From Candidatus Magasanikiibacteriota bacterium (GTDB taxonomy: Bacteria > Patescibacteriota > Patescibacteriia > Magasanikbacterales > GWA2-37-8), in the NCBI GenBank assembly GCA_016182085.1, contig JACOYB010000004.1, forward strand, positions 4,250 to 68,249: DNA of 64,000 nt, written 5' to 3'. Below the pieces are notes generated by a model. It saw only the letters and a list, made by a program, of their open reading frames with translations. It was not told the origin of the DNA and did not search any database. Every line of letters begins with the position of its first letter. Position 1 is the stretch's first letter. Shown here piece by piece: positions 1 to 57,100 of the stretch. The position numbers and the translations under genes are program-made.

Positions 1-22
1 ATTGGGGATAAGCCGGCTTGCC

Positions 23-47
23 AATAATACCCCCCTGGGGTATTATT
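23..47. promoter_or_regulatory. Perfect palindrome AATAATACCCC-cct-GGGGTATTATT (11-bp arms) immediately upstream of the csoR start; candidate CsoR autoregulatory operator
   Basis: Seen directly: reverse complement of 37-47 equals 23-33. G/C-tract palindromes of the TACCC..GGGTA type are the known operator class for CsoR-family repressors. Confidence 0.5.
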
Positions 48-55
48 ATATTTGT

Positions 56-328
56 ATGAAACCAATCCTAAAAAATAAACTGCTTAAACGCCTCAAAATT
101 ATTGAGGGGCAAATTCGCGGTTTGCAGGCTATGTTGGAAAATGGCACCTATTGCGTGGATGTTATTACCCAAGCCAGCGCCGTAAAAAAAGCCGTTTCCA
201 GTTTTGAGGATGCTTTGCTCGAAAGCCACTTATCTACCTGTGTGATAAATCAAATAAAATCCGGCCAGCACGCCAAAGCCGTTAATGAAGTAATGAAGGT
301 TTACAAATTGTCTAAAAAAGACAATTAA
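56..328 (+). CDS. csoR: CsoR/RcnR-family (DUF156) metal-sensing transcriptional repressor
   Basis: ~90 aa; the ..KKLLKRLKIIEGQIRGLQAMLENGTYCVDVITQASAV.. helix with the conserved Cys is typical of copper-sensitive operon repressors. Start taken at ATG 56 rather than the TTG at 2 so the operator stays upstream. Confidence 0.75.
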   Translation: MKPILKNKLLKRLKIIEGQIRGLQAMLENGTYCVDVITQASAVKKAVSSFEDALLESHLSTCVINQIKSGQHAKAVNEVMKVYKLSKKDN

Positions 329-342
329 GTTTTTATAGAATT

Positions 343-792
343 ATGCGTTTACAAACATTTTTAAAATTAATTTCCGGGTTAACGGCCGGCGTGATAATGG
401 CCGTAGCCCTGCTTATTTTTATTTGTCCCGGAGTTTTTATGTCTGATACCATGGTATCTAGTCCCGATATGGCCACGCCGTGTCAGAGCGATGTGGGTAT
501 GGCTGTTGGCGCCGTAGATTCCAGCGGCTGCACCAGTGTTCATTTGGCCCAGGCCCAGCGTTTTATTGGCAGCTTAGGCGGTGAAATGAGTTTGTTGTTA
601 GGAGCACTGCTTACTGTCACAGTTATTTATTTTATATCTCGGGCTGAATTTTTGAACCGGACACGCGCCGCCTTTGTCCGCTATAAATATTATTACCGGT
701 TATACTTTGCGTCCATTCGTTTACAATGCCAAAAAAAGACGATGGCTTGGCTGGCGCTGCTCAAAAATTACGAAACCGCTTCACTCGCTTAA
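343..792 (+). CDS. Hypothetical small membrane protein with Cys/Met-containing loop, in copper operon
   Basis: Two predicted TM segments; no recognisable family. Confidence 0.4.
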   Translation: MRLQTFLKLISGLTAGVIMAVALLIFICPGVFMSDTMVSSPDMATPCQSDVGMAVGAVDSSGCTSVHLAQAQRFIGSLGGEMSLLLGALLTVTVIYFISRAEFLNRTRAAFVRYKYYYRLYFASIRLQCQKKTMAWLALLKNYETASLA

Positions 793-891
793 GTTTTTGC
801 TAGCTTGAAAGGTTGGTAGCGTATTTAGATAGCGAAACTATATGGTGGAGTGATTTTTAATTTTATTTTTCTCTTAAAATTAGTTTATTAT

Positions 892-2214
892 ATGAACAAA
901 AAAACAATTCCTATTCGCGGCATGCACTGCGCTTCTTGCGAAATACTTGTGGGCGATGAATTAAAAAAAATCGCCGGGCTTAGCAGTGTTTATGTCAGCC
1001 AAAAAAGGGCTTTGGCGATAGTGAAATACCCGGAGGCAGCCCAGATAAATGATAATGATATTATTAAAGCCGTTCAAGAAGCCGGCTACGAAGTCGGACA
1101 GAAGGAAAAATTACCATGGATTTCTCGCAACGCCGCCGATTACAAAGATTTGGCGCGCGCTGCCGGAATTTTTTTGGTAATTTATTTGCTGGTCAGATGG
1201 TTTAATTTGTTTGATTTGGGTTTTAACACTCAAAGTTCCGGCGTAGCCGTGGCGCTGCTAGTCGGGCTGGTGGCCGGGGTATCAACTTGTATGGCGTTAA
1301 TTGGCGGTTTGGTGCTCAGTCTGTCGGCGCGGCATGCCGAACAGCACCCGGAAGCCACAACCTTGCAAAAATTTCGTCCGCATATCTATTTTAACATTGG
1401 TCGAATCTTAGGGTTTGCTGTTTTGGGCGGTTTAATCGGTCTTATCGGTCAAGCCTTCAAACCATCCAACAACTTGCTTGGACTTCTAACCGTGCTAATT
1501 GGCGGGGTAATGATATTCTTTGGTTTGAAGTTGATAGAAATTTTTCCGGCCTTACGCGACAAAAGCATCACTTTGCCATCGGGTATTGCCCGGTTTTTTG
1601 GATTAAAGAAAGAAGTAAAAGAATATAGCCACAAGGGCGCAATGGTAATGGGAGGGCTGACATTTTTCTTGCCTTGCGGTTTTACTCAAGCGATGCAGCT
1701 CTATGCGGTCTCTACCGGCAGTTTTTGGCAAGGCGCCGCAATTATGGGGCTGTTTGCTGTTGGCACCGCGCCCGGACTTCTTGGTATTGGTGGATTAACC
1801 TCGGTATTTAAAGGACGCAAGGCGCGCATATTTTTTATGACCGCCGGACTGACGGTAATTCTTTTGGGCTGGGTAAATATTGCCAATGGCAGCCGGCTAT
1901 TTGGCGCTCGCGTTGACAGTAAATCAGTTCCTGTAGTTACAGATCAAAACGCGCAAGAAGTGCGGATGACTCAAGGACGCACCGGTTACTCCCCAAATAT
2001 ATTTACCGTTAAAAAAGGCCAGCCGGTGAAATGGATAGTAAAATCAGAGACTTCTTTGTCCTGTGCGGCATATTTGGTAATGCCCAAATACGGCATCAGT
2101 AAAGCGCTTCAATCGGGAGAAAATATTATTAATTTTACACCCACCCAAGTTGGCGAAATTCCGTTCTCTTGTTCCATGGGGATGTATCGCGGAAAGTTTG
2201 TTGTGGTTGAATAA
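892..2214 (+). CDS. Fusion protein: N-terminal HMA (GMHCASC) domain, polytopic permease domain (DsbD_2/TauE-like, conserved Cys in TM helices), C-terminal cupredoxin_1-like domain
   Basis: MHCASCE heavy-metal-associated motif; ~8 hydrophobic helices with STCMAL and LPCGFTQ motifs; C-terminal ..KGQPVKWIVKSETSLSCAAY...FSCSMGMYRGKFVV resembles the cupredoxin-like copper-binding fold. Start at ATG 892. Confidence 0.65.
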   Translation: MNKKTIPIRGMHCASCEILVGDELKKIAGLSSVYVSQKRALAIVKYPEAAQINDNDIIKAVQEAGYEVGQKEKLPWISRNAADYKDLARAAGIFLVIYLLVRWFNLFDLGFNTQSSGVAVALLVGLVAGVSTCMALIGGLVLSLSARHAEQHPEATTLQKFRPHIYFNIGRILGFAVLGGLIGLIGQAFKPSNNLLGLLTVLIGGVMIFFGLKLIEIFPALRDKSITLPSGIARFFGLKKEVKEYSHKGAMVMGGLTFFLPCGFTQAMQLYAVSTGSFWQGAAIMGLFAVGTAPGLLGIGGLTSVFKGRKARIFFMTAGLTVILLGWVNIANGSRLFGARVDSKSVPVVTDQNAQEVRMTQGRTGYSPNIFTVKKGQPVKWIVKSETSLSCAAYLVMPKYGISKALQSGENIINFTPTQVGEIPFSCSMGMYRGKFVVVE

Positions 2215-2228
2215 TTAGAAATGATTAT

Positions 2229-2441
2229 ATGCCAAACCAAAAATTTGTTATTACTAATTTAACTTGCGCGGCTTGCGTAAAATTGTCCACCCTGGCGCTT
2301 AAAAAAATTCCGGGTGTAAGCGCAGCGGCAGTTGATCTTGCTACCGGCGCTGCCGAAATTACCGGCGACCGCGATGTGGCGTGGAAAGAAATTGAAGGAG
2401 CGCTTAAGAGCGTGGATAAAACCGCGGCTCAAATTACTTAA
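2229..2441 (+). CDS. copZ: Small HMA-domain metallochaperone (CopZ-like, CxxC = TCAAC)
   Basis: 70 aa; betaalphabetabetaalphabeta HMA pattern with CAAC. Confidence 0.6.
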
Positions 2442-2451
2442 TTTTAATTGT

Positions 2452-5214
2452 ATGGATAAAATCTTACTCAAAATTACAGGCATGCACTGTGAGTCGTGCG
2501 AAAAAATAATCGGCATGGAGCTGTCGGAAATAGCCGGCGTCAGTAATGTTAAAATAAATTTTGCGGCCGGGTCCGGAGAATTAGAAGCCTCCACCGAAGT
2601 ATCAAATGAAGCGATTGTTCAGGCGATTGTGAAGGCCGGGAATCAGGGAGAGGTGGTAAGTCGTATTAAAGAGCAAACTTCCTCTGTTCCAAATACATTT
2701 GAGAAAAATATCGTTTCCGGCAATCAACCATTTAAAGTAAAGATTGAAGTGACTGTAGAACCGGAAGGCGCTGTTGTTGGGAGCTCGTCCGCATATATCC
2801 CTCGGCCTGCGACAGAAAAAATTTCTAATCAAACAGCCCCAGGTTCTGCCGTAAAAGAGAAAAAAGAAGAACAAGTGCAACTAGCTCTTACCGGCATGCA
2901 TTGCGCGTCGTGCGCGGGTTTGATTGAACGAGGCTTAAAAAAAGTGGCGGGTGTAAAGAGTGCTAATGTTAATTTTGCGGTTGAAAAAGCGCGGGTGGTG
3001 TTTGATAATTCAGTCGCATCGGTAGAGCAGCTTATTGGGGCGGTAGAAAAATCCGGTTACAAAGCGCGGCTGGCCGGCACCGGCAATCCCGAGGAAGAAA
3101 GATTGCAGCGAGAAAATGTTATCAAAAGATACTGGCAAAAGTTTTTCTGGGGGCTTATCCTTAGTTTGCCGATGCTGTATTTCATGCTTCTGGATTTCTT
3201 TTCGTTTCTACCCAGCAGAACATTTCTTTTGCCGTATATTGGTATCGTATCGCTTATTCTTACCATTCCCGTACAATTTATTATCGGCGCGGGATTTTAT
3301 AAAGGAATGTGGAGCAGTCTGCGAATGAAAACGTTTAACATGGATAGTTTGATTGCTATCGGTACAAGCACCGCGTTTTTCTACAGCTTGGCGCAATTTA
3401 TTAACTATGTTGCGCGTACCGGCAGCGTGGTTGGTTTAAATGGCGCGAAAATTCCCGAATTATATTTTGAAACCGCCGCTTTTTTGATTACTTTTGTTAT
3501 TCTGGGCAAGTGGCTGGAAGCAAAAACAAAAGGGCGAACATCAGATGCTATAAAAAAATTGATGGGGCTTCAGGCTAAAACCGCGCGCGTGATGAAAAAT
3601 GGCGTGGCTTTGGATGTACCCATTGAACAGGTTGTGGCCGGCGATACAATTGTCGTCCGCCCGGGTGAAAAAATTCCGGTAGATGGCGCGGTAAGCAAGG
3701 GGCAGTCCAGCGTGGATGAATCTATGATTACGGGTGAAAGTATTCCGGTGGAAAAAAATATTGGTGACATGGTGATTGGTGCGACTATAAATAAACATGG
3801 CAGCTTTGAATTTACGGCCACCAAAGTGGGAAGCGAAACTATGCTGGCGCAAATTATTCGGGTGGTTGAAGAAGCGCAAGGATCTAAAGCGCCGATTCAA
3901 GCGTTTGCCGATAAAATTTCCGCCTACTTTGTGCCAATTGTTATTGGTTTAGCGGTGCTTACATTTTTGGTTTGGTATTTTGCTCTTGGCGCCAGCCTTA
4001 CTTTCGCGTTAATGGCTTTTACTTCGGTTATCGTTATTGCTTGTCCTTGCGCTTTGGGACTAGCCACGCCAACAGCCATTATGGTTGGTACGGGCAAGGG
4101 CGCCGAACATGGCATTCTTATCAAAGGCGGTGAGCCGCTGGAAGCCGCCTGCAAAATTAAAGCCGTAGTATTTGATAAAACAGGCACACTCACCAAAGGT
4201 CAGCCGGAAGTTACTGATGTGGTAAGCGCCGGTCTGTCTGATGAAGAAGAAATAATTCGTATCACCGCCAGTCTGGAAAAACTTTCCGAGCATCCGCTCG
4301 CGGACGCGATTGTTAAATATGCTGAAGAAGAATCCGTGCCGCTTAGCGAGGTGGCCGGTTTTCGCGCTATTCCCGGTCATGGTGTTGAGGGTGTATTAAA
4401 TAGCGTTAAATATTATTTTGGTAACCGTAAATTAGTGACGGATGTGGTTGGTATTTCCACAGTTGTTCTGGAAAAAGTGGAGCGTAAAATTCGCAAACTA
4501 GAAGAGAGCGGCAAGACGGTAATGATTTTGGCTTCAACCCAAGAAATTTTGGGATTGGTAGCGGTGGCCGATACGATAAAAGAAACAACCGTAGATGCGG
4601 TGCGCGCCTTACAAGAACAACACATCGAAGTCTTTATGATTACCGGCGATAATCGCCGCACAGCCGAAGCCATTGCTCGCCAGGCCGGAATAAAAAATGT
4701 CTTGGCGGAAGTATTGCCGGAAGACAAAGCTAATGAAGTCAAAAAATTACAGGGAACAGGTATTAAAGTGGCGATGGTGGGCGATGGAATCAACGACGCG
4801 CCCGCGCTGGCGCAAGCGGATTTGGGTATTGCCATGGGAAGCGGCACAGATGTGGCTATGGAAACGGGCGGAATTGTTATTATTAAAAATGATCTGCGTG
4901 ATGTACTTACGGCTATTAAACTGAGCCGTGAAACTATGAATAAAATTAAACAGAACATGTTTTTTGCCTTGTTCTATAATGTTATTGGTATTCCTATTGC
5001 CGCGCGCGTGTTTGTCGGTATTGGCATAGTGTTAAAACCGGAGTTGGCGGGTTTGGCCATGGCGCTTAGTTCAATATCGGTAGTCTCCAATTCTTTATTC
5101 TTGCGCGGATTCAAACCGGGCAAGCGTAACTGGCTGTCTATGGCCGCGCCGATAGTGATGGGATTACTATTTACCGCCATATTCTTTGTCTTTGCCCGGC
5201 TTAGCCGAATGTAG
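2452..5214 (+). CDS. copA: Copper-translocating P1B-type ATPase with two N-terminal HMA domains
   Basis: Two MHCxSC HMA domains; TGES actuator motif, CPC in TM6 ([12 protein letters not shown]), [16 protein letters not shown]1B signatures. Start at ATG 2452 ([16 protein letters not shown]); the upstream 2332-2451 part of the ORF overlaps copZ in another frame. Confidence 0.92.
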
Positions 5215-5277: not shown

Positions 5278-6390
5278 ATGAAAAAAGAAAAACAAATCAT
5301 TGAATCTTTGTTGGCCGGTACGGGAATTAAGATAAACGGAAACAATCCCTATGACCTGCAAGTACACAATGAAAATTTTTATGGCCGCTTATTGCGGTAT
5401 GGCTCATTAGGGCTCGGCGAGTCCTATATGGATGGCTGGTGGGATTGCGCCAGTCTTGATCAGTTTTTTCATAAAGTTCTGGAAGCTGATCTACACAGCC
5501 GAGTGAAAAACGATCTTGGCATCGCTCTAAAGATTGCTTTAAATTTTGTGTTGAATGTTGGCAGAAAGTCAAAAGCCTTTAAGAATGGAAGGCATTATGA
5601 TGCTGGCAATGATTTATATCGCGCGATGCTTGATAAGCGTTTAGCCTATACCTGCGGATATTGGAAAGATGCCGTTAATCTTGATGATGCGCAAGAAGCA
5701 AAACTTGATTTGGTCTGCAGAAAGATGGGCCTAAAACCCGGGCAAAAAATATTAGATATCGGTTCGGGCTGGGGGAGTTTTATGGGGTATGCGGCCGAAA
5801 AATACGGAGTAAATGCCGTTGGAGTTACTGTCTCAAAAGAACAAAAGGCGCTTGCGGATACTCTTTATAAAAATCTCCCCGTAGAAACGCGGCTGCAAGA
5901 TTATCGCGATATCAATGAAAAGTTTGACCAGGTAGTATCTTTAGGGATGTTTGAACATGTTGGATATAAGAATTATCGTACCTTTATGAAGGTCGCGCAT
6001 AGCTCTCTTAAAGACAACGGTTTATTTTTGTTGCACACTATCGGCGGCAATCATTCGGCGCGCATTACGGAGCCATGGATTGAAAAATATATTTTCCCCA
6101 ACTCCATGCTTCCCTCAATCAAGCAGATTGGCAAAGCTATTGAAGACCTATTTGTGATGGAAGATTGGCATAATTTTGGGGTTGATTATGACAAGACACT
6201 AATGGCTTGGTATAAGAATTTTGAAGATAATTGGGATAAAATAAAATCAAATTATGATGAAAGGTTTTATCGGATGTGGAAGTATTATCTTTTAGTCTCC
6301 GCCGGAAGCTTCCGAGCCAGAACAAATCAATTATGGCAGATTGTCTTGTCTAAAAAAGGGGTTCCTGGGGGGTATATATCAGTTAGGTAA
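5278..6390 (+). CDS. cfa: Cyclopropane-fatty-acyl-phospholipid synthase family SAM-dependent methyltransferase
   Basis: Full-length match to CFA synthase architecture (LDIGSGWGS SAM motif, conserved C-terminal region). Confidence 0.8.
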   Translation: MKKEKQIIESLLAGTGIKINGNNPYDLQVHNENFYGRLLRYGSLGLGESYMDGWWDCASLDQFFHKVLEADLHSRVKNDLGIALKIALNFVLNVGRKSKAFKNGRHYDAGNDLYRAMLDKRLAYTCGYWKDAVNLDDAQEAKLDLVCRKMGLKPGQKILDIGSGWGSFMGYAAEKYGVNAVGVTVSKEQKALADTLYKNLPVETRLQDYRDINEKFDQVVSLGMFEHVGYKNYRTFMKVAHSSLKDNGLFLLHTIGGNHSARITEPWIEKYIFPNSMLPSIKQIGKAIEDLFVMEDWHNFGVDYDKTLMAWYKNFEDNWDKIKSNYDERFYRMWKYYLLVSAGSFRARTNQLWQIVLSKKGVPGGYISVR

Positions 6391-6440: not shown

Positions 6441-8507
6441 ATGCCAGAAAACCTTCACGGAGAGCATGCCGGCCACGATATGCAAAAGATGAGCCATATG
6501 GATCACGAAGCGGCCATGACCAATCCGCAAATGGCCAAGCAGATGGAAGCGGATATGCGCCGCCGCTTCTGGGTTTCTTTGTTTCTTTCTGTGCCGATTT
6601 TTTTGTACTCACCGGTCGGCGTTAATATATTTAAATTTAATTTGCCAACACCACTTCCCGTAAATTGGCTGCTTTTTATTCTCACTACCCCGATAGTTTT
6701 TTGGACAGGTTCTATTTTTATCACTGGTACATACTATTCTCTTAAAAGTAGAAAACTCAACATGTCGGTGCTTATTGCCACCGGCGTATTGGCCGCGTAT
6801 TTATTTAGCGTTCTGCTTACTTTTACTATTGGCGGCGAAACATTCTACGAAGCCGCGGCGCTACTGGTAACATTTGTATTATTTGGCCATTGGATGGAGA
6901 TGAAATCACGGCGCGGTACGTCTGATGCGTTGCGAGCCTTGTTTGATTTGGTGCCGCCAAAAGCCAATGTTGTTCGCGGAGGCAAAGAAATAAACATCAC
7001 CAGCGCGGAAATAGTCCAGGGCGACATTGTCGTGCTTCGGCCCGGCGACAAAGTGCCGGTGGATGGTGAAATCACCGAAGGCGAAACTTCTATTGATGAA
7101 TCACTTATTACCGGAGAATCTATTCCAGTTACTAAAACTATCGGAGCAAAAGTGGTGGGTGGATCGGTGAATCTTACCGGTATCGCGCAATTTAAAGCTA
7201 CAAAGGTTGGGTCGGAAACGGTGTTGGCCCAGATTATAAAAATGGTAGAGACTGCGCAGAACTCCAAAGCTCCCGGTCAGCGCATAGCCGACAAAGCCGC
7301 CGGCTGGCTAGTTATTCTTGCTATTGGCTCGGGGCTGGCTGCGTTTTTTGGCTGGTATGTTGGCGCAGGCGTGGGTCTTTTGGCCGCTCTCACTTTTGCA
7401 GTATCAACTGTGGTGATTGCCTGTCCGGATGCTTTGGGGCTCGCCACCCCGACAGCGGTCGCTGTGGGAACCGGCATTGGCGCAAAATATAATATTTTAA
7501 TAAAAGATGCCGCTACTTTGGAAAATACATCTCGGCTAACAGCCATTGTTTTGGATAAAACCGGCACTCTTACAGAAGGAAAACCAAAAGTCACCGAGGT
7601 TGTTGTGCGATCGGGATACGATCACCACGAAGTTTTATCGCTTGCTGCCTCGGCAGAGCGAGGTTCAAATCATCCTATTAGCGCCGCTATTTTAGAAGAA
7701 GCAAAAAAGAATGGGTTGGATGCAAACGAAAAGGTAGAAAAATTTGAATCAATTGGCGGCCATGGCGTAAGGGCTGTTATAAATGGCAAAGTTATTATTG
7801 CCGGCACGGAGCGGCTTATGCAACAAAATAATATTGATCTTTCTCCGATCAAAAAAGAAATTGACCGTTTGCTTAGTACCGGTAATACCATTAGTATTGT
7901 TGCTATTGATGGGCAAGTGGCGGGTGCTATCGGGGTGGCGGACACTCTTAGGCCTTCGGCGAAAAAAACTATCTCGGCGCTCCAGTCGCTTGGGCTGGAA
8001 GTGGCGATGATTACCGGCGATCATGAACAGGTGGCAAAAGCGGTATCAGATGAACTTGGCATAAATCGCTATTTCGCACAGGTGTTGCCGGAAGACAAGG
8101 CAAAATATGTAAAAAAACTTCAGGATGAAGGCAAATTTGTGGCAATGGTCGGAGATGGAATCAATGACGCTCCGGCACTCGCGCAGTCAAATATCGGCAT
8201 TGCCATCGGCGCCGGTACGGATGTGGCGATTGAAACAGGTAATATCGTGCTTATGAAATCAGATCCGTATGATATTGTGGCCGCCCTTCGTTTGAGCAAG
8301 GCAACGGTAGTAAAAATGAAACAGAATTTATTTTGGGCGGCGATATACAACGTGCTGGCCATTCCGGTTGCGGCCGGCGTGTTTTATAACTCATTAGGTT
8401 GGTCGTTGCGTCCGGAAATCTCCGCGCTTTTAATGTCAGCATCGTCTATTATTGTCGCCACTAACGCCGTGTTGTTGAAGCGAGTTGAATCCAAATTAAA
8501 AATTTAA
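6441..8507 (+). CDS. Second heavy-metal P1B-type ATPase, CopB-like (His/Met-rich N-terminus, no HMA domain), with unusual CPD transmembrane motif
   Basis: N-terminus HGEHAGHDMQKMSHMDHEAAMTNPQMAKQMEADM; [19 protein letters not shown] present; TM6 reads ACPDALGLATP (codons TGT CCG GAT). Confidence 0.85.
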   Translation: MPENLHGEHAGHDMQKMSHMDHEAAMTNPQMAKQMEADMRRRFWVSLFLSVPIFLYSPVGVNIFKFNLPTPLPVNWLLFILTTPIVFWTGSIFITGTYYSLKSRKLNMSVLIATGVLAAYLFSVLLTFTIGGETFYEAAALLVTFVLFGHWMEMKSRRGTSDALRALFDLVPPKANVVRGGKEINITSAEIVQGDIVVLRPGDKVPVDGEITEGETSIDESLITGESIPVTKTIGAKVVGGSVNLTGIAQFKATKVGSETVLAQIIKMVETAQNSKAPGQRIADKAAGWLVILAIGSGLAAFFGWYVGAGVGLLAALTFAVSTVVIACPDALGLATPTAVAVGTGIGAKYNILIKDAATLENTSRLTAIVLDKTGTLTEGKPKVTEVVVRSGYDHHEVLSLAASAERGSNHPISAAILEEAKKNGLDANEKVEKFESIGGHGVRAVINGKVIIAGTERLMQQNNIDLSPIKKEIDRLLSTGNTISIVAIDGQVAGAIGVADTLRPSAKKTISALQSLGLEVAMITGDHEQVAKAVSDELGINRYFAQVLPEDKAKYVKKLQDEGKFVAMVGDGINDAPALAQSNIGIAIGAGTDVAIETGNIVLMKSDPYDIVAALRLSKATVVKMKQNLFWAAIYNVLAIPVAAGVFYNSLGWSLRPEISALLMSASSIIVATNAVLLKRVESKLKI

Positions 8508-41688: not shown

Positions 41689-44600
41689 ATGCGCGGAGGG
41701 AAATTTCGTCTTTGTCGTGGCTCGGTCACGATTTTTTTGGTTTTTACTGTTGGTATCCTCGTGGCGGGAGTGCTGGCGGTAGTTTTGGTGTTGCGACCAA
41801 AAACATCGGTGCCGGACAAGGGTTTGCCAGGGATATCTAAAACAATGGGCGGATTTGTGAAGACGCCAATTGGCGCAGCTACGCCGTCAGTTAAATTGGA
41901 AAGCCGTGTGCTTGAATTGACACCGGCGACAACTAAAACATTTTTAACGGAATTGGCGCAATCTGATAAATCAACGCAGCATGTCTATGTCCGCTTGGCG
42001 CGGTATCCGCAACTGGTTGATCGGGATACGTTGGAAAAAGCCGGAGTGACGCTTCTGGATTTTCTCGGCCAGCGCGTGTATATGGCCGTTGTTTCTGGTA
42101 AATTCACGGTTGATGATTTGGGCAAACAGCCGCTGGTTGAGGCCTTGGCAAAGATTGAGGATGCCGATAAAGCTCATCAAGATATTTGGAAAGAGAGATT
42201 TTTTGTTTTTGTCGTTAAACCGGGAGAAGATGAAAATGAGCCGGAGATTAATTATGTGCAAAATTCCGACGGTACGTTGAATTTAACGGTAGAATTTTTT
42301 GCCGATGTGGCCGCATCAGTCGCGAGAAATATTTTACAGGACGCTGGCGGCGCTAGAAGCGCCATGGGGCGTGGGCTGTGGGAAGTGAAATCAGCGCCCG
42401 CCTCGGCTGTTCGTCGGTTGGCTGCTTACGATGCAGTGAAACGTGTTGATCCGGGTCCGGCGCCATTTATGGCGGACAACAATCGCAGCCGCGCCGCGCT
42501 TAATGTTGATACCGTGCAGAATTTCACCACGGCCACCAATGTTTTTGGCGGTTTGAGCGGTTTGGGCGTGCAAGCGATTATTTTTGAAAGCATGATGGAT
42601 GAAACGCATGATGATTTTAGTTTGCTTGATGCCGCTAATAATATTATCGGCAGTCGGGTTGCCCGCCATCAGCCATCGGCGCATGCTACTCATGGCAGTC
42701 ATGCTACGCATGTGGCGGGTATTGTCGGCGGCAACGGGTTTATGAGTACAAGCACTATTATTGTTCAATGTCCGGGGACACCGGCGGTCAGCGGCACCCC
42801 TTGGCTGTTCCGCGGCATGGCACCACAGGCCACGCTTCTTGATTATGCCAGTTGGGAACGGACGCCAGACGGCATTCTTGATGCGGTTGCTAATTTTGGC
42901 ACCGAGTTGTCCAATAATTCATACTCAATTACATATGACGGGGATTATAGCGCCGCTATGCAAATCAACGACCGGCTGATCCGCGGTTCGGCCGTTTCAT
43001 CAGGGGGCGTAGCAGTGCCAGGCCGATCGATGATGTTTTCGGCAGGTAATCATGGATCCTATACATATAACGGCGGCGAGCAGGTTGGCTATTTTGCTCT
43101 GACTAAACAAAATAAAAATGACACCATGGTGGGGAATTGGAATGCCTGTGGCGCTACGCTGGCCGGTGGCAACATTGGTACCAGTATGGGTCCTGCTTAT
43201 GACGGGCGTATCAAGCCGGATGTGGTTGCTTCGGGCAGCTATGTTATATCCACGCAAAGCAACAATAATGGTTACACCAACAAATCAGGAACCTCAATGG
43301 CTACTCCGGCAGTGACTGGCGTCAGCGCGCTAGTTCTACAACAATACGCCACGACTTATGGTGTCAATCTTGATGTGAATCCGCCGCGTCCTTCAACTAT
43401 TAAAGCAGTATTAGTTAATACCGCAACTGATATTGACTGGGCAACGGCCGCGCCCGCCGGCTATGTTTATCCGCCCGCCGGCGGTATAACTGGCTGCGCT
43501 CCCGGGCTTCTCAATAATCCGGCATTTTGCGTGGGTGACGGCCCGGTGGTTTTCTTTCCCGGTCCTGACTTTGCGACTGGTTGGGGCATGGTTAACGCCC
43601 AAGCCGCGGTGAATGCGGTGGCGGCGCAAACTTTATTTGAAGATCAGATCGATGTGACTGGACAATTCCGTGGCATACAGTTTAGCGTTGCTTCGGGTAC
43701 AACCAATATGCGCATGACGCTGGCCTGGGATGATGTGGAAGGCAGTCCCGCAATTCTCGATACGAGCCCGCACTTGGTTAATGATCTTGATCTTGAGCTG
43801 ACTGACCCGGCCGGAGTCGTGTTTTACCCTTGGCAGTTGAATCAAGCCATTGCTGATGTTGCGGGTGTGCCATTGCCTAATGAACAGCAATATCCTGGTA
43901 CCGGTATCGTAATTACCACTGCGTTGGCACCGACAGCCGCGCCTATTGACTGCGATGGCAGCGCTGCTGATCCGAATCCATGCATACCCCAGAACGACTA
44001 TCCGGGCACCATTCCGGTAGCGCCCGCCGGCCAGGGGCGTGATCACCTCAACAATGTCGAGCAAGTATTTGTCTCGGCGCCGGTTGCCGGCACGTGGAAC
44101 TTGCGCGTTACCGGCTTCCAGATCCCTGATCCGGCTAATCCCCAGCCATACTCCATCGCCGGTTTGTCGGCCGCCGGCAATGCCTGGCCTGACCTGACGC
44201 CGATTGGCGATGTAACTATTGATGAAGGCGCGACCATGATTATTCCAATTACCGCCGTTGATCCCGAAGGCACGCCAATCACGCTTACCGCCAGCGGTCT
44301 GCCACCGTTTGCCGCCTTTGCCGATTTGGGTGGTGGCGCCGGCACGCTTACTCTGACACCAAGTTGCACTGACACTGGCGTCTATCGCGGTCTGGCTATC
44401 ATTGCTACTGATGGCGGCGCGCCGATAAAATATGAAGGCCAATATATAACCATTACCGTTAATCCGGCCAACTGCGCTCCGGCTATTGATCCGGTTGCCG
44501 ATGTGACTATTACCGAAGGCGATACACTTGATGTGCCGGTGAGCGCTACCGATCCGGAAGGCGATGCGTTGGTTTTGGCCGCTCCTGATTTGCCGCCGTT

Positions 44601-46827
44601 TGCCGCCTTTGCGCCAACAGGTCCGGGTACCGGGGCAATAAATTTGGCGCCAAGTTGCAGTGATGCCGGTGTTTATGCAGACCGGACGATTACTGCCACC
44701 GATAGTGGCGCTCCACCCCAGACAATGACTGAACTCTTTACGATTACCGTCGACGATGATTTGGTTCCGGTGGCTAATGCCGGAGCGGACATCGTTACGT
44801 ACAGCGCCATGGCTACCGTACTCAACGGCGCCGCCAGTAGCGATCCGGAGGCCAAGCCATTGACCTATAGTTGGGCACAGACCGCGGGTACACCGGTGGT
44901 TCTGGCCGGCCTCGATACAGCCACGCCGAGCTTTACGGCACCAACGGTCGCCGCCAGCGAAACGCTTACCTTCACCGTAACCGTTACCGATTCGTGCGCG
45001 CAACCTGCCGCCGACACTGTCGTTGTGACTGTCCGTCCGCTCGTTGATGCTTCTATTATCCTCGATCGTTCCGGCAGTATGATGTGGCCTGTGCCGGCCG
45101 AGGGCGGCGGCACCATTACCAAGATGAACTCATTAAAAAATTCGGTCAATCTTTTCCTCTCGCTCTTTGTTAATGAACGCCCGGGCGCGCCTGATAAGCT
45201 CGGTATTGTTAAGTTTGCCGACAACACGGCGGCGGATACGCAAACAATCCGTCCGCTGGCCGATGTCGAACCGGCGGACATAGCGCCTGCCGGCGCCGTG
45301 AGCGCGCTGATTTCCGGTCTGACCACCGATGCGACCACGTGGATTCGCGGCGGTCTTAATCTTGGATTGGCGGAACTGTTCGGTCCGGCCGGAGTAGCCA
45401 GTCACAAAAAAGCGATGGTACTCTTCTCCGACGGCAAAGAAAATGAATCGCCTTTGACGCAGGATCCGCCGCCGGCGCCGGATGGGGTTTTAAGCGATCC
45501 TGATTTTATCAGTACGTCAGTATATGCGGTCGGCTTTGGCGTCGCTGGCGCGGCCGGCGATACCGGTATTGATGAGGCGCTCTTAACCACCATTCAAAAC
45601 GTCGGTGCCGCCGATGGTTTCGTCAATGTTACCGCCGAGCCGTTGGCGCTTACCAAGTTCTTTGTTGAGGCGTTGGCCACCATGTTCGATCAAACCATAT
45701 CGCTTGATCCGGTGACCACGTTATCCGGAGCCGGGTCATCGTTCCAGTCGGCTACCATCAGTAGCGCCGATCGCCAGGCCACGTTCGTGCTTACTTGGAA
45801 TCAGCCGCAGACCGATGCGCTCGACCTTAAACTGCGTACGCCCGAAGGTGAACTGATTACTACCGCCGACGCCGCGCCGGGAACACCGATTGAATATGTG
45901 AGTGGCGCGACGTTCAAGTACTTTATCGTGCGTTTTCCGCTTACCGGTCGTTTGCGCGGCATTCACGCCGGCACTTGGCAGATGGAAGTCAGTCGCAATC
46001 AGGCGCCCGCCAATCAGCTGGCGACCTTTGCCACGGCGGTCATGGTAGATAGTCCTAGTTTGCGCTGGATGCCTTCAATACCATCATCTATGCTGTTTAC
46101 CGGGGATGAATTCGGCATCCGGACATCGCTGCTTGAAAACGGCAAGCCGATTGCCAATGCCAAAGTGTTTGCCGACATTGAACGCCCAATAGTCAACCCG
46201 CATCAGGTTGTGGTCACGGCCAAGCTCGATCCGCGCCAAGCGTATATTCCATCTGTTCTCAAAACCGATCCGCCGTCGCCGTATGACCAGAAATTGCTTC
46301 AGATTATTAAAAACGCCCGCGGTAAAAATCCATTTCCTGTGAGCAAGGAGCGGGTGCAACTCTTTGATGACGGTAAGCATAATGATGGCAAAGCGAACGA
46401 TGGCACGTATGGCGCCAATCTAACTAAAACCAATGTTGGCGGTGTCTACCGCATTCATCTGCGCGCCCAAGGTAAAAGTTCGCAGTACGGGGCATTTACC
46501 CGTGAGTCCAGCCGGAGTATTACCGCTATCATCAAAGCTAGTCCCAAGGCATCGAATGTTACCATTGCGCCGATTACCAAAGCTTCAGCCCGTGGGACCA
46601 TATACCAATTGACGGTGACACCGAAAGACAGCCAAGGAAACATAGTTGGCGCTGGCTATGCTAGTATGGTTAAAGTAAGTGGCGCCGATATCAAGCCGAT
46701 TGAAGCGGTAGAAGACAAGACCAATGGCAGTTACACACTGCGTTTTACGGCCGACCCGCGGGCCATTCTGACTGTCCGGTTTGGTGATGAGAAGCTTGCC
46801 AGTATGGTAGTTGAAAAATCTCAATAG
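41689..46827 (+). CDS. Giant (1712 aa) secreted subtilisin-like serine protease (S8) with cadherin-like/Ig-like repeats and a von Willebrand factor A domain
   Basis: Signal/TM; HGSHATHVAGIVGG (His) and GTSMATPAVTG (Ser) motifs; three ~90-aa repeats (DPEGTPITLTASGLPPFAAF..); VDASIILDRSGSM vWA MIDAS motif. Confidence 0.85.
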   Translation: MRGGKFRLCRGSVTIFLVFTVGILVAGVLAVVLVLRPKTSVPDKGLPGISKTMGGFVKTPIGAATPSVKLESRVLELTPATTKTFLTELAQSDKSTQHVYVRLARYPQLVDRDTLEKAGVTLLDFLGQRVYMAVVSGKFTVDDLGKQPLVEALAKIEDADKAHQDIWKERFFVFVVKPGEDENEPEINYVQNSDGTLNLTVEFFADVAASVARNILQDAGGARSAMGRGLWEVKSAPASAVRRLAAYDAVKRVDPGPAPFMADNNRSRAALNVDTVQNFTTATNVFGGLSGLGVQAIIFESMMDETHDDFSLLDAANNIIGSRVARHQPSAHATHGSHATHVAGIVGGNGFMSTSTIIVQCPGTPAVSGTPWLFRGMAPQATLLDYASWERTPDGILDAVANFGTELSNNSYSITYDGDYSAAMQINDRLIRGSAVSSGGVAVPGRSMMFSAGNHGSYTYNGGEQVGYFALTKQNKNDTMVGNWNACGATLAGGNIGTSMGPAYDGRIKPDVVASGSYVISTQSNNNGYTNKSGTSMATPAVTGVSALVLQQYATTYGVNLDVNPPRPSTIKAVLVNTATDIDWATAAPAGYVYPPAGGITGCAPGLLNNPAFCVGDGPVVFFPGPDFATGWGMVNAQAAVNAVAAQTLFEDQIDVTGQFRGIQFSVASGTTNMRMTLAWDDVEGSPAILDTSPHLVNDLDLELTDPAGVVFYPWQLNQAIADVAGVPLPNEQQYPGTGIVITTALAPTAAPIDCDGSAADPNPCIPQNDYPGTIPVAPAGQGRDHLNNVEQVFVSAPVAGTWNLRVTGFQIPDPANPQPYSIAGLSAAGNAWPDLTPIGDVTIDEGATMIIPITAVDPEGTPITLTASGLPPFAAFADLGGGAGTLTLTPSCTDTGVYRGLAIIATDGGAPIKYEGQYITITVNPANCAPAIDPVADVTITEGDTLDVPVSATDPEGDALVLAAPDLPPFAAFAPTGPGTGAINLAPSCSDAGVYADRTITATDSGAPPQTMTELFTITVDDDLVPVANAGADIVTYSAMATVLNGAASSDPEAKPLTYSWAQTAGTPVVLAGLDTATPSFTAPTVAASETLTFTVTVTDSCAQPAADTVVVTVRPLVDASIILDRSGSMMWPVPAEGGGTITKMNSLKNSVNLFLSLFVNERPGAPDKLGIVKFADNTAADTQTIRPLADVEPADIAPAGAVSALISGLTTDATTWIRGGLNLGLAELFGPAGVASHKKAMVLFSDGKENESPLTQDPPPAPDGVLSDPDFISTSVYAVGFGVAGAAGDTGIDEALLTTIQNVGAADGFVNVTAEPLALTKFFVEALATMFDQTISLDPVTTLSGAGSSFQSATISSADRQATFVLTWNQPQTDALDLKLRTPEGELITTADAAPGTPIEYVSGATFKYFIVRFPLTGRLRGIHAGTWQMEVSRNQAPANQLATFATAVMVDSPSLRWMPSIPSSMLFTGDEFGIRTSLLENGKPIANAKVFADIERPIVNPHQVVVTAKLDPRQAYIPSVLKTDPPSPYDQKLLQIIKNARGKNPFPVSKERVQLFDDGKHNDGKANDGTYGANLTKTNVGGVYRIHLRAQGKSSQYGAFTRESSRSITAIIKASPKASNVTIAPITKASARGTIYQLTVTPKDSQGNIVGAGYASMVKVSGADIKPIEAVEDKTNGSYTLRFTADPRAILTVRFGDEKLASMVVEKSQ

Positions 46828-54144: not shown

Positions 54145-57100
54145 ATGAAAAAACGCCTGGGTTTTTCCCTCCTCATCGCCGCATTTAGCTTGGCGATCTA
54201 TGTATCTTTTTTGGCTCCAAGCAAAGTTGCGGCTGATTCAAATCTGGTTGAAGACCCGGGCTTTGAAACGAGCATGTCTAACTTTGAACCAAATCAAGAC
54301 GGTACATCCGTATCTCTTACGAGCATTAGTCCAATTAACGGATCCCGAAGTTTGGTAGTTGGCACTACTGGTTATGGTGATAGTGTATTATGGCAAGGCC
54401 GGGATATTTCTACCTTTGCTACCAAAAGATCAAATCAATTTACCGCTTCAGTGCGTATTCGTTCCACCGTTGGTTCGGCTTCAGAGATTTCTTTTTGCGG
54501 TTTGGTAGATTACGCAACTGGCGAAGGCGTTCGCAATTGTAAAGAAGTAACAGGTTCGGTTGGTGACAAAGGCACAGTCAATCTTTCCTTTGCTCTTGAT
54601 AACAGCCGAGATTTAGACAGAGTCCGTGTTGGTATTTTCCAAGAAGGAAGCGCCGCCTTACGTGAAGTTTTAATTGATGACTTGTCAGTGATATTAACCG
54701 GTATTTCCATCGGTTCGCCAGCTCCTACTCCGGTAAATGGTGCGTGTGGATCTTCAAATAACGCCACTGTTGCCAGCGCTCCAACCACCAACCTCTGTTC
54801 ATCCGGTTCTGCCAGCACGGTTGCGGGTTCCGGTCCATGGACTTGGAGCTGCGCCGGATCAAATGGCGGTACAACCGCCAGCTGCAGCGCTCAAATGATT
54901 TCTACTTCAAATCCAGTAAATGGTACTTGCGGCGCGGCTAATAACACCCAAGTTTCTTCAGCTCCAACTAACTATCTGTGTTCATCGGGTACAGCCAGTA
55001 CTGTTTCTGGTTCCGGCCCATGGACATGGAGTTGTTCGGGTACAAACGGTGGTACCAACTCTAGTTGTAGCGCTCAAACAATTACTACCCAAAATCCAGT
55101 AAACGGTGTTTGCGGCTCGGCTAATAATACAACAGTTTCAACAGCCCCAACGACTGGTCTTTGTTCCGTTGGCTCAGCCAGCACGGTGGCCGGTTCCGGC
55201 CCATGGACATGGAGCTGCGCCGGTCAAAACGGCGGCACAACCGGTAGTTGTAGCGCTCAAAAAACTATTTCTTCCACACCGCCGCCTGTTTCAAGCGCAA
55301 ATAATTTAATTGAAGAACCTAGTTTTGAAACCACTCTTTCTAATTTTGAACCAAATCAAGCCGGCACCTCTGTTAATGTTACAAATGTTAATCCCATTAG
55401 CGGCGCTAGAAGTTTATCTATAACTACCGGCGGCTACGGCGATAGTATTCTTTGGGCAGGCCGGGACATTTCTACTTTTACTACCAAAAGATCTTCTCAA
55501 TTTACCGGTTCTATCCGTATTCGTTCTACCGTTGCTTCTGCCTCCGAAATTTCATTCTGCGGTTTAGTTGATTACGCAACCGGATCCGGCGTACGTAATT
55601 GTACTAATGTTAGTGGTTCTGTTGGCGATAAAGGTACAGTTAATCTTTCCTTTGCTCTTGATAGCGCTCGTGATTTAGACAGGGTCCGTGTTGGTATTTT
55701 CCAAGAAGGCAGCTCTCCTCTTAGAGCAGTTATGCTTGATGATGCTTCCGTAGTTTTAGCAGGTATTTCTCCTCCGATTCCAGTAAGCGGAGCTTGCGGA
55801 TCATCTAATAACACCACTCTTTCATCTGCCCCAACTACCAATCTTTGTGCCAGTGGCAGCCCGAGCTCTGTATCCGGTTCGGGTCCTTGGAGTTGGACAT
55901 GTAATGGTTCAAATGGCGGCACTACTGCTAGCTGTACTGCCCAAAGAACTATTACCCAAACTCCGGTAAATGGCGTATGTGGTTCAGCCAATAACACAAC
56001 AGTTTCAACTGCTCCAACTACCAATCTGTGTTCTTCCGGTTCTGCCAGCACGGTTGCCGGTTCTGGCCCATGGACTTGGTCTTGCGCCGGTTCAAATGGC
56101 GGCACAACCGGTAATTGTAGCGCTCAGCTTTCCGGATCAACTACAATTCCACCTTCAACTAGATTTACAATCGGTCAACGCGTGCAAACAACAGCTAATT
56201 TAAATGTTAGAGCCACTCCAAATACCGCAGGTACTTTGCTTGGCACACAAACTTCCGGTTCGTTAGGCACAGTAACAGGCGGGCCAGTAGCCCAGGGAGG
56301 CTATAATTGGTGGGGTATAAACTACGATGCGGGAGCAGACGGATATTCGGTAGAAAATTTCTTAACCGCCTATTCATCTCCAAATCCTCCTCCAACTCCT
56401 CCACCGGGCGGCGCCATAACTTATCCGGCCTTTAATTTAAACGATCCGGCAGATGCCCCGCTTATTAAATTTGCAGAAACATGGGCAAGAAATTGGAATT
56501 TTGAAGGACATAATGTTGATCCTAACTTTAGCGGCAATAGCGGCAATTGGAATTATACCGAAACCACTTATGAGCCATGGCTTTTTGATCGTGCTTCCGT
56601 TGGTTACTATTTATATAAAAGAACTACCGACCCTACGCAAAAAGCTCGCTGGTATCAGCAATTTTTATCCGACTTTGCTTATTATAGAAATCATATAGAT
56701 TCAGCCGGTATATTTACTCCAAAAGGATATGGCGATACAAAATATAGTTATATCACTCCATTCTTACTTTACGAAAAAGAAACCGGAGACACTCAATATC
56801 GTCCAATTGCCCAAAGAATCTATAATGCATGGATGAGTGATTTTAGTAGCACATATTCACCAAATGGAAACGATCTTTGGACAGAACGTGAAATTGGTCT
56901 GGCTTTGGAAGCGGCCGTGTCTTGGTACGAAATTACTGGTGATTCTTCCGCGCTTACTCGCGCCAATGCTTTGATATCTCAATGGACTGTGGTGGCCAAC
57001 GCAGGCGGAGGCGTACCTCTTACTACCGTAGATCGCCATGAAGGTGGCGGAGGAACACAACTCATCACAAGTCCTTGGATGAGTGGATTATACTTCCAAG

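Follow-up and report, generated by a model that had tools for sequence, protein, structure and literature searches.

A DsbD_2 membrane protein flanked by HMA and CupA-type cupredoxin domains as a possible Cu(I) relay component in a predicted copper operon of Patescibacteria

What could a membrane protein with a metal-binding domain at each end contribute next to an ATP-driven copper pump? This question is raised by a gene at 892..2214 (+ strand) of a stretch of 64,000 nucleotides (nt) from Candidatus Magasanikiibacteriota bacterium (assembly GCA_016182085.1, contig JACOYB010000004.1, positions 4,250 to 68,249 of the forward strand), the whole of which is called the window in the following. The gene product of 440 amino acids (aa), here named fusion protein, joins an HMA domain, an extra transmembrane (TM) helix named TM0, a six-TM DsbD_2 core and a CupA-type cupredoxin. 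With slightly less than even confidence, we favour the reading that it acts as an accessory in copper detoxification, encoded in an operon under CsoR control, and relays Cu(I) across the membrane via three two-cysteine stations.

Domain make-up, family and genomic context

The open reading frame (ORF) of the fusion protein spans 850-2214 (+), and the in-frame ATG at 892 agrees with the N-termini of homologues (MNKKTIPIRGMHC versus MSTLKVPIRGMHC). Each of its Pfam domain assignments lies above the curated gathering score. The HMA domain (904..1092, + strand; aa 5-67) was found with E 7e-10 and 39.5 bits against a cut-off of 24.8; it contains the motif GMHCASC with C13 (nt 928-930) and C16 (nt 937-939). 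The match to DsbD_2 (PF13386; 1252..1872, + strand; aa 121-327) has an E of 6e-31, scores 108 bits against a cut-off of 24.9 and covers profile positions 2-198 of 199, while the TM region by itself reaches 110 bits. At the C-terminus, Cupredoxin_1 (PF13473; 1942..2205, + strand; aa 351-438) was assigned with E 1.6e-9. An HMA domain, a membrane core and a cupredoxin in one polypeptide had been claimed in a preliminary description of this DNA, and with all three domains above the Pfam thresholds this combination is far beyond chance. A split or mis-called gene was also considered and rejected: in longer relatives (approximately 585 aa) the extra sequence is a second cupredoxin at the C-terminus and not the ORF upstream of the fusion gene, orf149.

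The architecture had also been called unusual, which it is not. The NCBI database holds a protein of 100% identity from a Candidatus Magasanikbacteria metagenome-assembled genome (MAG), named 'sulfite exporter TauE/SafE family protein', and thousands of relatives have the same architecture. When 1.84 billion cluster representatives (50% identity) were searched exhaustively with HMMER, 5984 matched at E<=1e-3 and 966 at E<=1e-30. When the domain make-up of the best 149 representatives was scored with hidden Markov models (HMMs) built from the family alignment, 109 showed the order HMA-TM-cupredoxin, 19 had a second cupredoxin and 2 also a second HMA. At least 588 species-level genomes carry the family, mostly Patescibacteria, and the best 80 genomes all belong to Patescibacteria/candidate phyla radiation (CPR) lineages or to generically labelled MAGs. 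A second large branch exists in Clostridia, cultured species included, and split-gene versions occur in Actinomycetes and Deinococcus. Clostridial members are named 'UreH domain-containing', 'heavy metal transporter' or, by the Joint Genome Institute (JGI), 'sulfite exporter TauE/SafE/copper chaperone CopZ/plastocyanin domain-containing protein'. The HMA+DsbD_2 grouping of the databases is COG2836, and compared with HMA+DsbD_2(+Cupredoxin_1) proteins the fusion protein is a member without any difference. A computational prediction placed COG2836 in the CsoR regulon of gut Firmicutes, there as a variant with DUF2318 instead of the cupredoxin (PMC4938975). Only this predicted regulon membership was found in literature searches, and within their reach the earlier statement that this is not a characterised family holds. 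The architecture is catalogued and common, its function is uncharacterised, and the locus in the window is an ordinary family member, not a one-off. As a side observation, many MAGs with close homologues in typical Patescibacteria-like cop clusters are labelled 'uncultured Gammaproteobacteria bacterium' (e.g. the loci L008, L009 and L016), labels which look like placeholder or wrong taxonomy.

The genomic context of the fusion gene is consistently related to copper. Its neighbourhood was counted in 80 related species-level loci: a P-type ATPase gene is situated directly 3' on the same strand in 71 of them, with contig ends as three of the nine exceptions, a CopZ-like gene is inserted between both in 47, and a CsoR gene lies 5' in 41. 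A Clostridial homologue with 29% identity is likewise located directly 5' of CopA. In the window, the gene order is csoR-orf149-fusion-copZ-copA with gaps of 10-14 nt plus one of 99 nt. We predict from sequence that this is a CsoR-regulated operon, as a CsoR with the C-H-C pattern, a palindromic operator and a P1B-1 CopA are all present. Because the gene almost always adjoins CopA, a role as partner of the ATPase is more probable for the fusion protein than that of an alternative exporter acting on its own. The preliminary description had suggested a copper relay or exporter, or a thiol-based shuttle, distinct from P-type ATPases; a thiol-based shuttle of Cu(I) or electrons is still the most reasonable reading, with the stand-alone exporter as the less likely part.

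Cupredoxin site, topology and membrane core

A comparison with PDB sequences matched the C-terminal domain to CupA of Streptococcus pneumoniae (E 5e-12) and to the cupredoxin metal-binding domain of its CopA (E 6e-9), which identifies what had been described as cupredoxin-like as a true cupredoxin. In the phmmer alignment with CupA, SLSC pairs with PSPC and FSCSMGMYRGK with FACGMNMMHGK, by which the single Cys and the C-x-M-x-M motif are aligned. The binuclear Cu(I) site of CupA is presumably formed by Cys74, Cys111, Met113 and Met115 (C...CxMxM), and the same set exists in the fusion cupredoxin as C391 (nt 2062-2064), C427 (nt 2170-2172), M429 (nt 2176-2178) and M431 (nt 2182-2184). Hence, fold and Cu(I) ligand set are common to this domain, CupA and the N-terminal cupredoxin domain of the pneumococcal CopA (PDB 4f2e/2mry, 4f2f). 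The CupA cluster comprises S1, a high-affinity bis-thiolate site, and the Met-rich S2, and CupA was able to reduce Cu(II) via the S1 cysteines in vitro (PMC7558416). However, CupA is anchored by a single helix, faces the cytoplasm and serves a CopA with a cupredoxin metal-binding domain, whereas the fusion cupredoxin follows seven TM helices at the C-terminus and is predicted to lie outside, and the CopA encoded nearby carries two HMA domains. With anchoring, predicted membrane side and partner domain all different, the fusion protein is not a strict CupA-type chaperone.

Two further observations concern cupredoxins in related loci. Relatives of approximately 555-590 aa (P0033, P0064, P0089) contain a Gly/Cys-rich linker (e.g. 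CGAGGCGGCGGG) followed by a second cupredoxin, in which the ligand set is reduced to GCM...C-A-M-G; this addition, found in many relatives, suggests extra surface thiolate capacity. Moreover, in some Patescibacteria a 119-aa protein is encoded in the place of copZ between the fusion gene and copA (L006:7345-7704, also L007, L008 and L013), consisting of a single helix at the N-terminus and a cupredoxin whose ligand motif, FVCGMNMFHGK, is exactly that of CupA. According to a review, CupA is confined to few streptococcal species; because this CupA-like gene occurs in some Patescibacteria, such chaperones appear to be more widespread.

The orientation of the fusion protein can be predicted from its charge distribution. 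Averaged over 35 homologues, the number of lysine plus arginine residues is 3.7 ahead of TM0 and 3.2, 5.9 and 2.8 in the loops TM1-2, TM3-4 and TM5-6, respectively, compared to 0.2, 0.7 and 0.0 in the alternate loops 1, 3 and 5. By the positive-inside rule, this predicts a cytoplasmic HMA domain, as had been proposed before, and a C-terminal cupredoxin outside. TM0 (1132..1200, + strand; aa 81-103), a helix in the AlphaFold2 (AF2) models with 3.7 such charges before and 0.2 after it, is the extra helix that joins the HMA domain to the core. The plasmid versions of Tsukamurella and Deinococcus lack both HMA and TM0: the DsbD_2 core opens the protein, with its Pfam match beginning at residue 6, the cupredoxin closes it, and the next gene separately encodes an HMA protein of 72 aa. 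Since the HMA-less versions also lack TM0, this helix connects a cytoplasmic HMA domain to a core whose N-terminus faces out. The same pattern of fusion and fission, with the HMA domain either fused or encoded next door, ties it functionally to the TM-cupredoxin unit. An exported HMA domain with TM0 as signal anchor was considered as well; the charge bias and the N-terminal domain of 80 residues argue against it.

Approximately eight TM helices had been assumed for the protein, but structure prediction gives seven, at aa 81-103, 116-151, 157-189, 193-215, 247-275, 278-305 and 309-337. They are found both in the AF2 model of the whole protein (predicted local distance difference test, pLDDT, 67.7) and in that of the membrane part alone (pLDDT 73.2; predicted template modelling score, pTM, 0.69). 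In these models TM1 and TM4 are each broken immediately before a conserved cysteine, namely C133 (nt 1288-1290) in STCM and C262 (nt 1675-1677) in LPCGFTQAMQ, both membrane-embedded. The cysteine motifs quoted in the preliminary description are indeed present, STCMAL at aa 131-136 and LPCGFTQ at aa 260-266. To judge conservation, 150 sequences representing clusters of 50% identity were aligned, which reach down to approximately 30% identity; among them C13, C16, C133, C262, PCGFTQ, C391, C427 and M429 are at least 90% conserved, while M134, M268 and M431 are invariant in sets of closer homologues. A comparison of TM1-3 with TM4-6 by hhalign detected no internal repeat, and because of this a 3+3 symmetry of the core is indicated by the matching helix breaks only.

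The affinity of this core to known families is remote. The TM region has no match to TauE (PF01925) and the fusion protein none to DsbD_TM (PF02683) even at E up to 10 in Pfam, and no NCBIfam model matches the TM region by itself even at permissive thresholds. The NCBIfam matches of the fusion protein are confined to the HMA and cupredoxin regions, with MerP, MerTP and MerT_CopZ appearing only in the HMA region and far below their cut-offs. The full-length homologue of the Clostridial species Acetoanaerobium noterae (29% identical), however, matches DsbD_2 (2e-52) and also DsbD_TM PF02683 over the full length, with 36.8 bits against a cut-off of 27.1; we take both families to belong to the same Pfam clan. 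Because this homologue matches both models, the core is, as judged from profiles, a remote relative of the CcdA/DsbD electron carriers, and the homology is distant but real. Direct membership in CcdA is not demonstrable by profile comparison, as hhalign of the family TM profile with one bona fide CcdA (from Tsukamurella) gave a probability of 1.4%. The preliminary description was to be abandoned if the central domain were a known CcdA/DsbD paralog with common HMA fusions and the C-terminus had no cupredoxin fold: the core does prove to be a DsbD_2 family member with common HMA fusions, as the first part demands, but this objection fails as a whole because the C-terminus is a true cupredoxin.

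Cargo and direction of the proposed relay

In the mechanism that we favour, Cu(I) would be passed by ligand exchange between successive stations. It would enter at the CxxC of the cytoplasmic HMA domain (C13/C16), loaded directly or by the neighbouring CopZ. From there it may move to the membrane-embedded C133 in the broken TM1 and C262 in the broken TM4, flanked by conserved Met, Thr and Gln, whereby a six-helix core of the CcdA/DsbD type could expose the Cys pair alternately to each side. The last station would be the bis-thiolate/methionine Cu(I) cluster site of the extracytoplasmic CupA-type cupredoxin (C391, C427, M429, M431); this domain, present twice in many relatives, may hold the exported Cu(I) at the cell surface. 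Cu(I) is the simplest candidate for the cargo, because both soluble end-stations are Cu(I) binders and not thioredoxin folds, and because the HMA domain is retained either fused or next door. We infer that Cu(I) transits through the membrane cysteines and that its direction is outward, beside CopA. For a predicted operon that contains CopZ and CopA and would be derepressed via CsoR, it is physiologically sensible to move Cu(I) outward or to capture it at the surface. Energy could possibly be provided by Cu+/H+ exchange through thiol protonation, or Cu(I) may move down a gradient toward a sink.

The relation to other carriers permits a broader proposal. UreH/SodT-type and other LysE-superfamily carriers (NicO/RcnA, CadD, MntP) share with the fusion protein a broad superfamily of small carriers with six TM helices. 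Many of them move metal cations, but they are without HMA and cupredoxin end-domains and are known to use His/Asp/Glu sites for hard or borderline divalent ions. The name 'UreH domain-containing' of some relatives is that of a Ni-transporter family. The LysE superfamily, including DsbD, was reported to have many metal-ion carriers, and roles in Hg and Cu resistance were reported for DsbD-family members (PMC4608589). More tentatively than the relay as such, it is conceivable that the family represents an undescribed class of ATP-independent soft-metal translocators, in which the CcdA/DsbD scaffold was re-purposed to carry Cu(I), and perhaps Hg(II) in actinomycete islands, along the three bis-thiolate stations of HMA domain, TM Cys pair and cupredoxin. 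The side of the sink would set the direction, and such a translocator would be a near-universal CopA partner in Patescibacteria and a common one in Clostridia.

Several points speak against a Cu(I) relay. Literature searches for this family or architecture found no experimental study of any member. The AF2 models are of moderate quality only (pLDDT 68 and 73), and no solved structure was matched when all PDB sequences were searched with a TM-region HMM. C133 and C262 are exactly the pair of the CcdA/DsbD carriers and cannot alone distinguish metal from electron cargo, and the methionine next to the TM1 cysteine is not kept in the actinomycete version (VSCAAV). Furthermore, nearly every copy of the gene is accompanied by that of an ATP-driven Cu(I) pump, beside which a second, unpowered exporter seems redundant, and no energy-coupling element is evident in the fusion protein. 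Finally, the direction is uncertain, as the split module is located beside merA in a Tsukamurella plasmid, where inward delivery of Hg(II) would fit better.

The identity of the cysteine pair leads to the main alternative, in which the ancestral function would be kept and C133 and C262 would move reducing equivalents outward, not metal, as in a DsbD/CcdA-like conduit. Such a protein would keep the cupredoxin cysteines reduced for Cu(I) arriving from CopA, or let the cupredoxin reduce Cu(II), comparable to the protection by ScsB/ScsC or DsbD/DsbC against copper-catalysed disulfide damage. The similarity to CcdA/DsbD/ScsB (PF02683, TCDB 5.A.1) comprises a six-TM core, here a DsbD_2 member, one Cys in TM1 and one in TM4 at helix breaks as the hallmark of these electron carriers, and soluble Cys-pair domains on either side, the same serial layout through which DsbD passes electrons (thioredoxin, beta domain, gamma and alpha domains). 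The A. noterae homologue even exceeds the threshold of the canonical DsbD_TM over its full length. ScsB and DsbD are linked to copper tolerance, and extracytoplasmic thiols require protection when copper is present. Reported DsbD-family roles in copper resistance (PMC4608589) and the Cu(II) reduction by the S1 cysteines of CupA (PMC7558416) also fit. Nevertheless, we regard this alternative as rather unlikely. The flanking domains of the fusion protein bind Cu(I) (HMA and CupA-type cupredoxin) and are not thioredoxin or immunoglobulin-like redox domains. No thioredoxin-fold domain was found in the protein or among the Pfam-annotated neighbours on four contigs, there is no thioredoxin-like partner in the operon, and throughout the 80 loci it is CsoR, CopZ and CopA that act as partners. 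An HMA domain at the cytoplasmic entry, fused or next door, would be needless for a thioredoxin-fed electron carrier, and the conserved Met ligands of the cupredoxin as well as Met, Gln and Thr around the TM cysteines fit metal coordination. The missing PF02683 match of the fusion protein itself and the hhalign probability of 1.4% with a bona fide CcdA also count against it.

If metal is the cargo, it might move in the opposite direction. In an inward soft-metal relay of the MerP-MerT-NmerA type, the cupredoxin would capture Cu(I) or Hg(II), the TM cysteines would import it and the HMA domain would hand it to CopZ/CopA, or to MerA in mercury islands; its purpose would be to clear the cell surface of thiophilic metal or to supply the sensor in the cytoplasm, as has been suggested for the CopC/CopD of cop operons. 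The three cysteine stations are arranged as in the Mer relay, where a thiophilic metal is handed between Cys pairs of an outer domain, a membrane protein and a cytoplasmic HMA domain (MerP-MerT-MerA with NmerA). Sub-threshold matches of the HMA region to the MerP and MerTP models and the split versions beside merA or merB in mixed Cu/Hg islands on Tsukamurella and Deinococcus plasmids also point in this direction. However, the membrane protein is unrelated to the Mer proteins, with no similarity to MerT, MerC or MerF in NCBIfam, where the TM region matches no model, and the outer domain is a cupredoxin with the Cu(I) cluster ligands of CupA and not an HMA domain. The partners in the window and in the 71 of 80 related loci are CsoR, CopZ and CopA, not MerA, in which context outward movement is likely; copper import while CsoR senses an excess would be a futile cycle with CopA. 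An inward relay is thus unlikely in our view. Still less probable is that nothing crosses the membrane at all, with the cupredoxin(s) sequestering Cu(I) outside, the HMA domain sensing cytoplasmic copper and the membrane domain serving as an anchor or modulator of CopA. Such a surface buffer or regulator would agree with the tight linkage to CopA and with the binding capacity added by a second cupredoxin and the Gly/Cys-rich linker in many relatives, and surface Cu(I)-binding lipoproteins such as CopL of Staphylococcus aureus exist in monoderms. But an anchor does not need a six-TM core in which near-invariant intramembrane Cys, PCGFTQ and polar residues are kept down to approximately 30% identity; a single helix anchors CupA itself. 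The sulfite/organosulfonate exporter of the TauE/SafE type, finally, is backed only by automatic NCBI and JGI names and stands at the very bottom of the scale. It is effectively refuted by the missing PF01925 match at E up to 10 together with the copper context, since both soluble domains and the operon are copper-specific. The TauE/SafE label is unsupported for the fusion protein, and thousands of entries with this name are probably misnamed.

Taken by analogy, the fusion protein would work like a hybrid with a DsbD/CcdA scaffold, the metal sites of CupA and CopZ, and the relay logic of Mer. The family as a whole would then be a new variant of known cysteine-relay systems, with the sequence itself being unsurprising. 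If the outward Cu(I) relay is true, copper homeostasis would include a membrane component that is absent from the textbook CsoR-CopZ-CopA scheme in most Patescibacteria, many Clostridia and the plasmid-borne metal islands of Actinomycetes and Deinococcus. It would mean that the Cys-pair scaffold by which DsbD/CcdA move electrons can move a thiophilic metal, and that a CupA-type Cu(I) site is present on the outer face of monoderms, where little is understood of what becomes of exported Cu(I). If the protein conducts reductant instead, it would be a new, self-contained version of the copper-protection idea of ScsB/DsbD. The family points to a widespread gap in the standard picture of copper efflux, and cultured hosts exist with Acetoanaerobium noterae, Clostridium thermosuccinogenes and Sporobacter termitidis.

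Operator, neighbouring genes and further observations

Just 5' of csoR a promoter-like site (18..46, + strand) consists of a -35 hexamer TTGCCA (18-23), a 17-nt spacer and a -10 hexamer TATTAT (41-46), with 10 of 12 consensus matches. It is a consensus match only, and its significance stems from the overlapping putative operator, the CsoR-type palindrome ATACCCC-CCT-GGGGTAT (27..43, unstranded), which is placed between both hexamers. The palindrome occurs once in the window, compared to 0.12 occurrences expected by chance, and we take it to resemble published CsoR operators. A strict box TACCC-N3-7-GGGTA was found 5' of the fusion homologue in 12 of the 80 related loci and not once in 534 kb downstream. 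As the -10 hexamer ends at 46 and the ATG of csoR is at 56, the operon transcript would have no leader or almost none. Nor is a Shine-Dalgarno sequence evident in front of the fusion gene (780-891).

The gene csoR (56..328, + strand, ATG at 56) encodes a 90-aa Cu(I)-sensing repressor of the CsoR/RcnR family (Pfam Trns_repr_metal, E 3e-26). Its predicted sequence contains a Cys (YCVDV) and His-x3-Cys (HLSTC), a C-H-C ligand pattern which presumably is that of Cu-sensing CsoR. It is followed by orf149 (343..792, + strand) for a small two-TM membrane protein with a Cys/Met-containing loop predicted outside, which matches neither Pfam nor NCBIfam and is a possible accessory component. The word-indexed search found only 2 database homologues. 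Weak homologues are encoded at the same position in L004 (5504-5935) and L005 (5513-5941), with three invariant Cys common to all. In many loci, the gap between csoR and the fusion gene is occupied by the gene of a small membrane protein (approximately 120-157 aa) that evolves fast and has a segment rich in Cys, Met and His, predicted outside, and positional analogues which look unrelated and have PCC or GCC motifs exist in the gaps of other loci (L046, L049, L050, L079, L082). Downstream of the fusion gene, a copZ-like gene (2229..2441, + strand) encodes a 70-aa HMA chaperone with a CAAC motif (Pfam HMA, E 3.6e-9), and copA (2452..5214, + strand) a P1B-1 ATPase for Cu(I) export. In Pfam this ATPase matches E1-E2_ATPase, Hydrolase and, twice at its N-terminus, HMA, and it contains the motifs CPC, YN and MxxSS.

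A cyclopropane-fatty-acid synthase gene (5278-6390, + strand; Pfam CMAS, E 4e-88) is located between copA and a second metal ATPase gene; it was also found 3' of copA on an identical Logan contig, and its position may link membrane lipid modification to the copper locus. The second P1B-type ATPase (6441-8507, + strand; 688 aa) is rich in His and Met at the N-terminus, and its transport helix carries CPD where CPC or CPH is usual. The CPD is kept in 7 of 7 CPR homologues in the related loci, of which several begin with a metal-binding module YTCPMHPE...CPKCGM; we know of no description of a CPD subclass of P1B-type ATPases. Farther away, two very long ORFs (41689-46827 and 54145-59904, + strand) encode 1712 and 1919 aa, with the former lying in a stretch of 0.52-0.58 G+C compared to approximately 0.43 for the window. 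In L089, a plasmid locus of Tsukamurella tyrosinosolvens (NZ_LR134469.1, 43.3-54.3 kb), the split TM-cupredoxin and HMA module is flanked by a P-type ATPase and merA, and a multicopper oxidase, a regulator of the MerR type and a CcdA/TlpA pair are encoded close by; this locus represents a mixed Cu/Hg island in which the split module might handle Hg(II).

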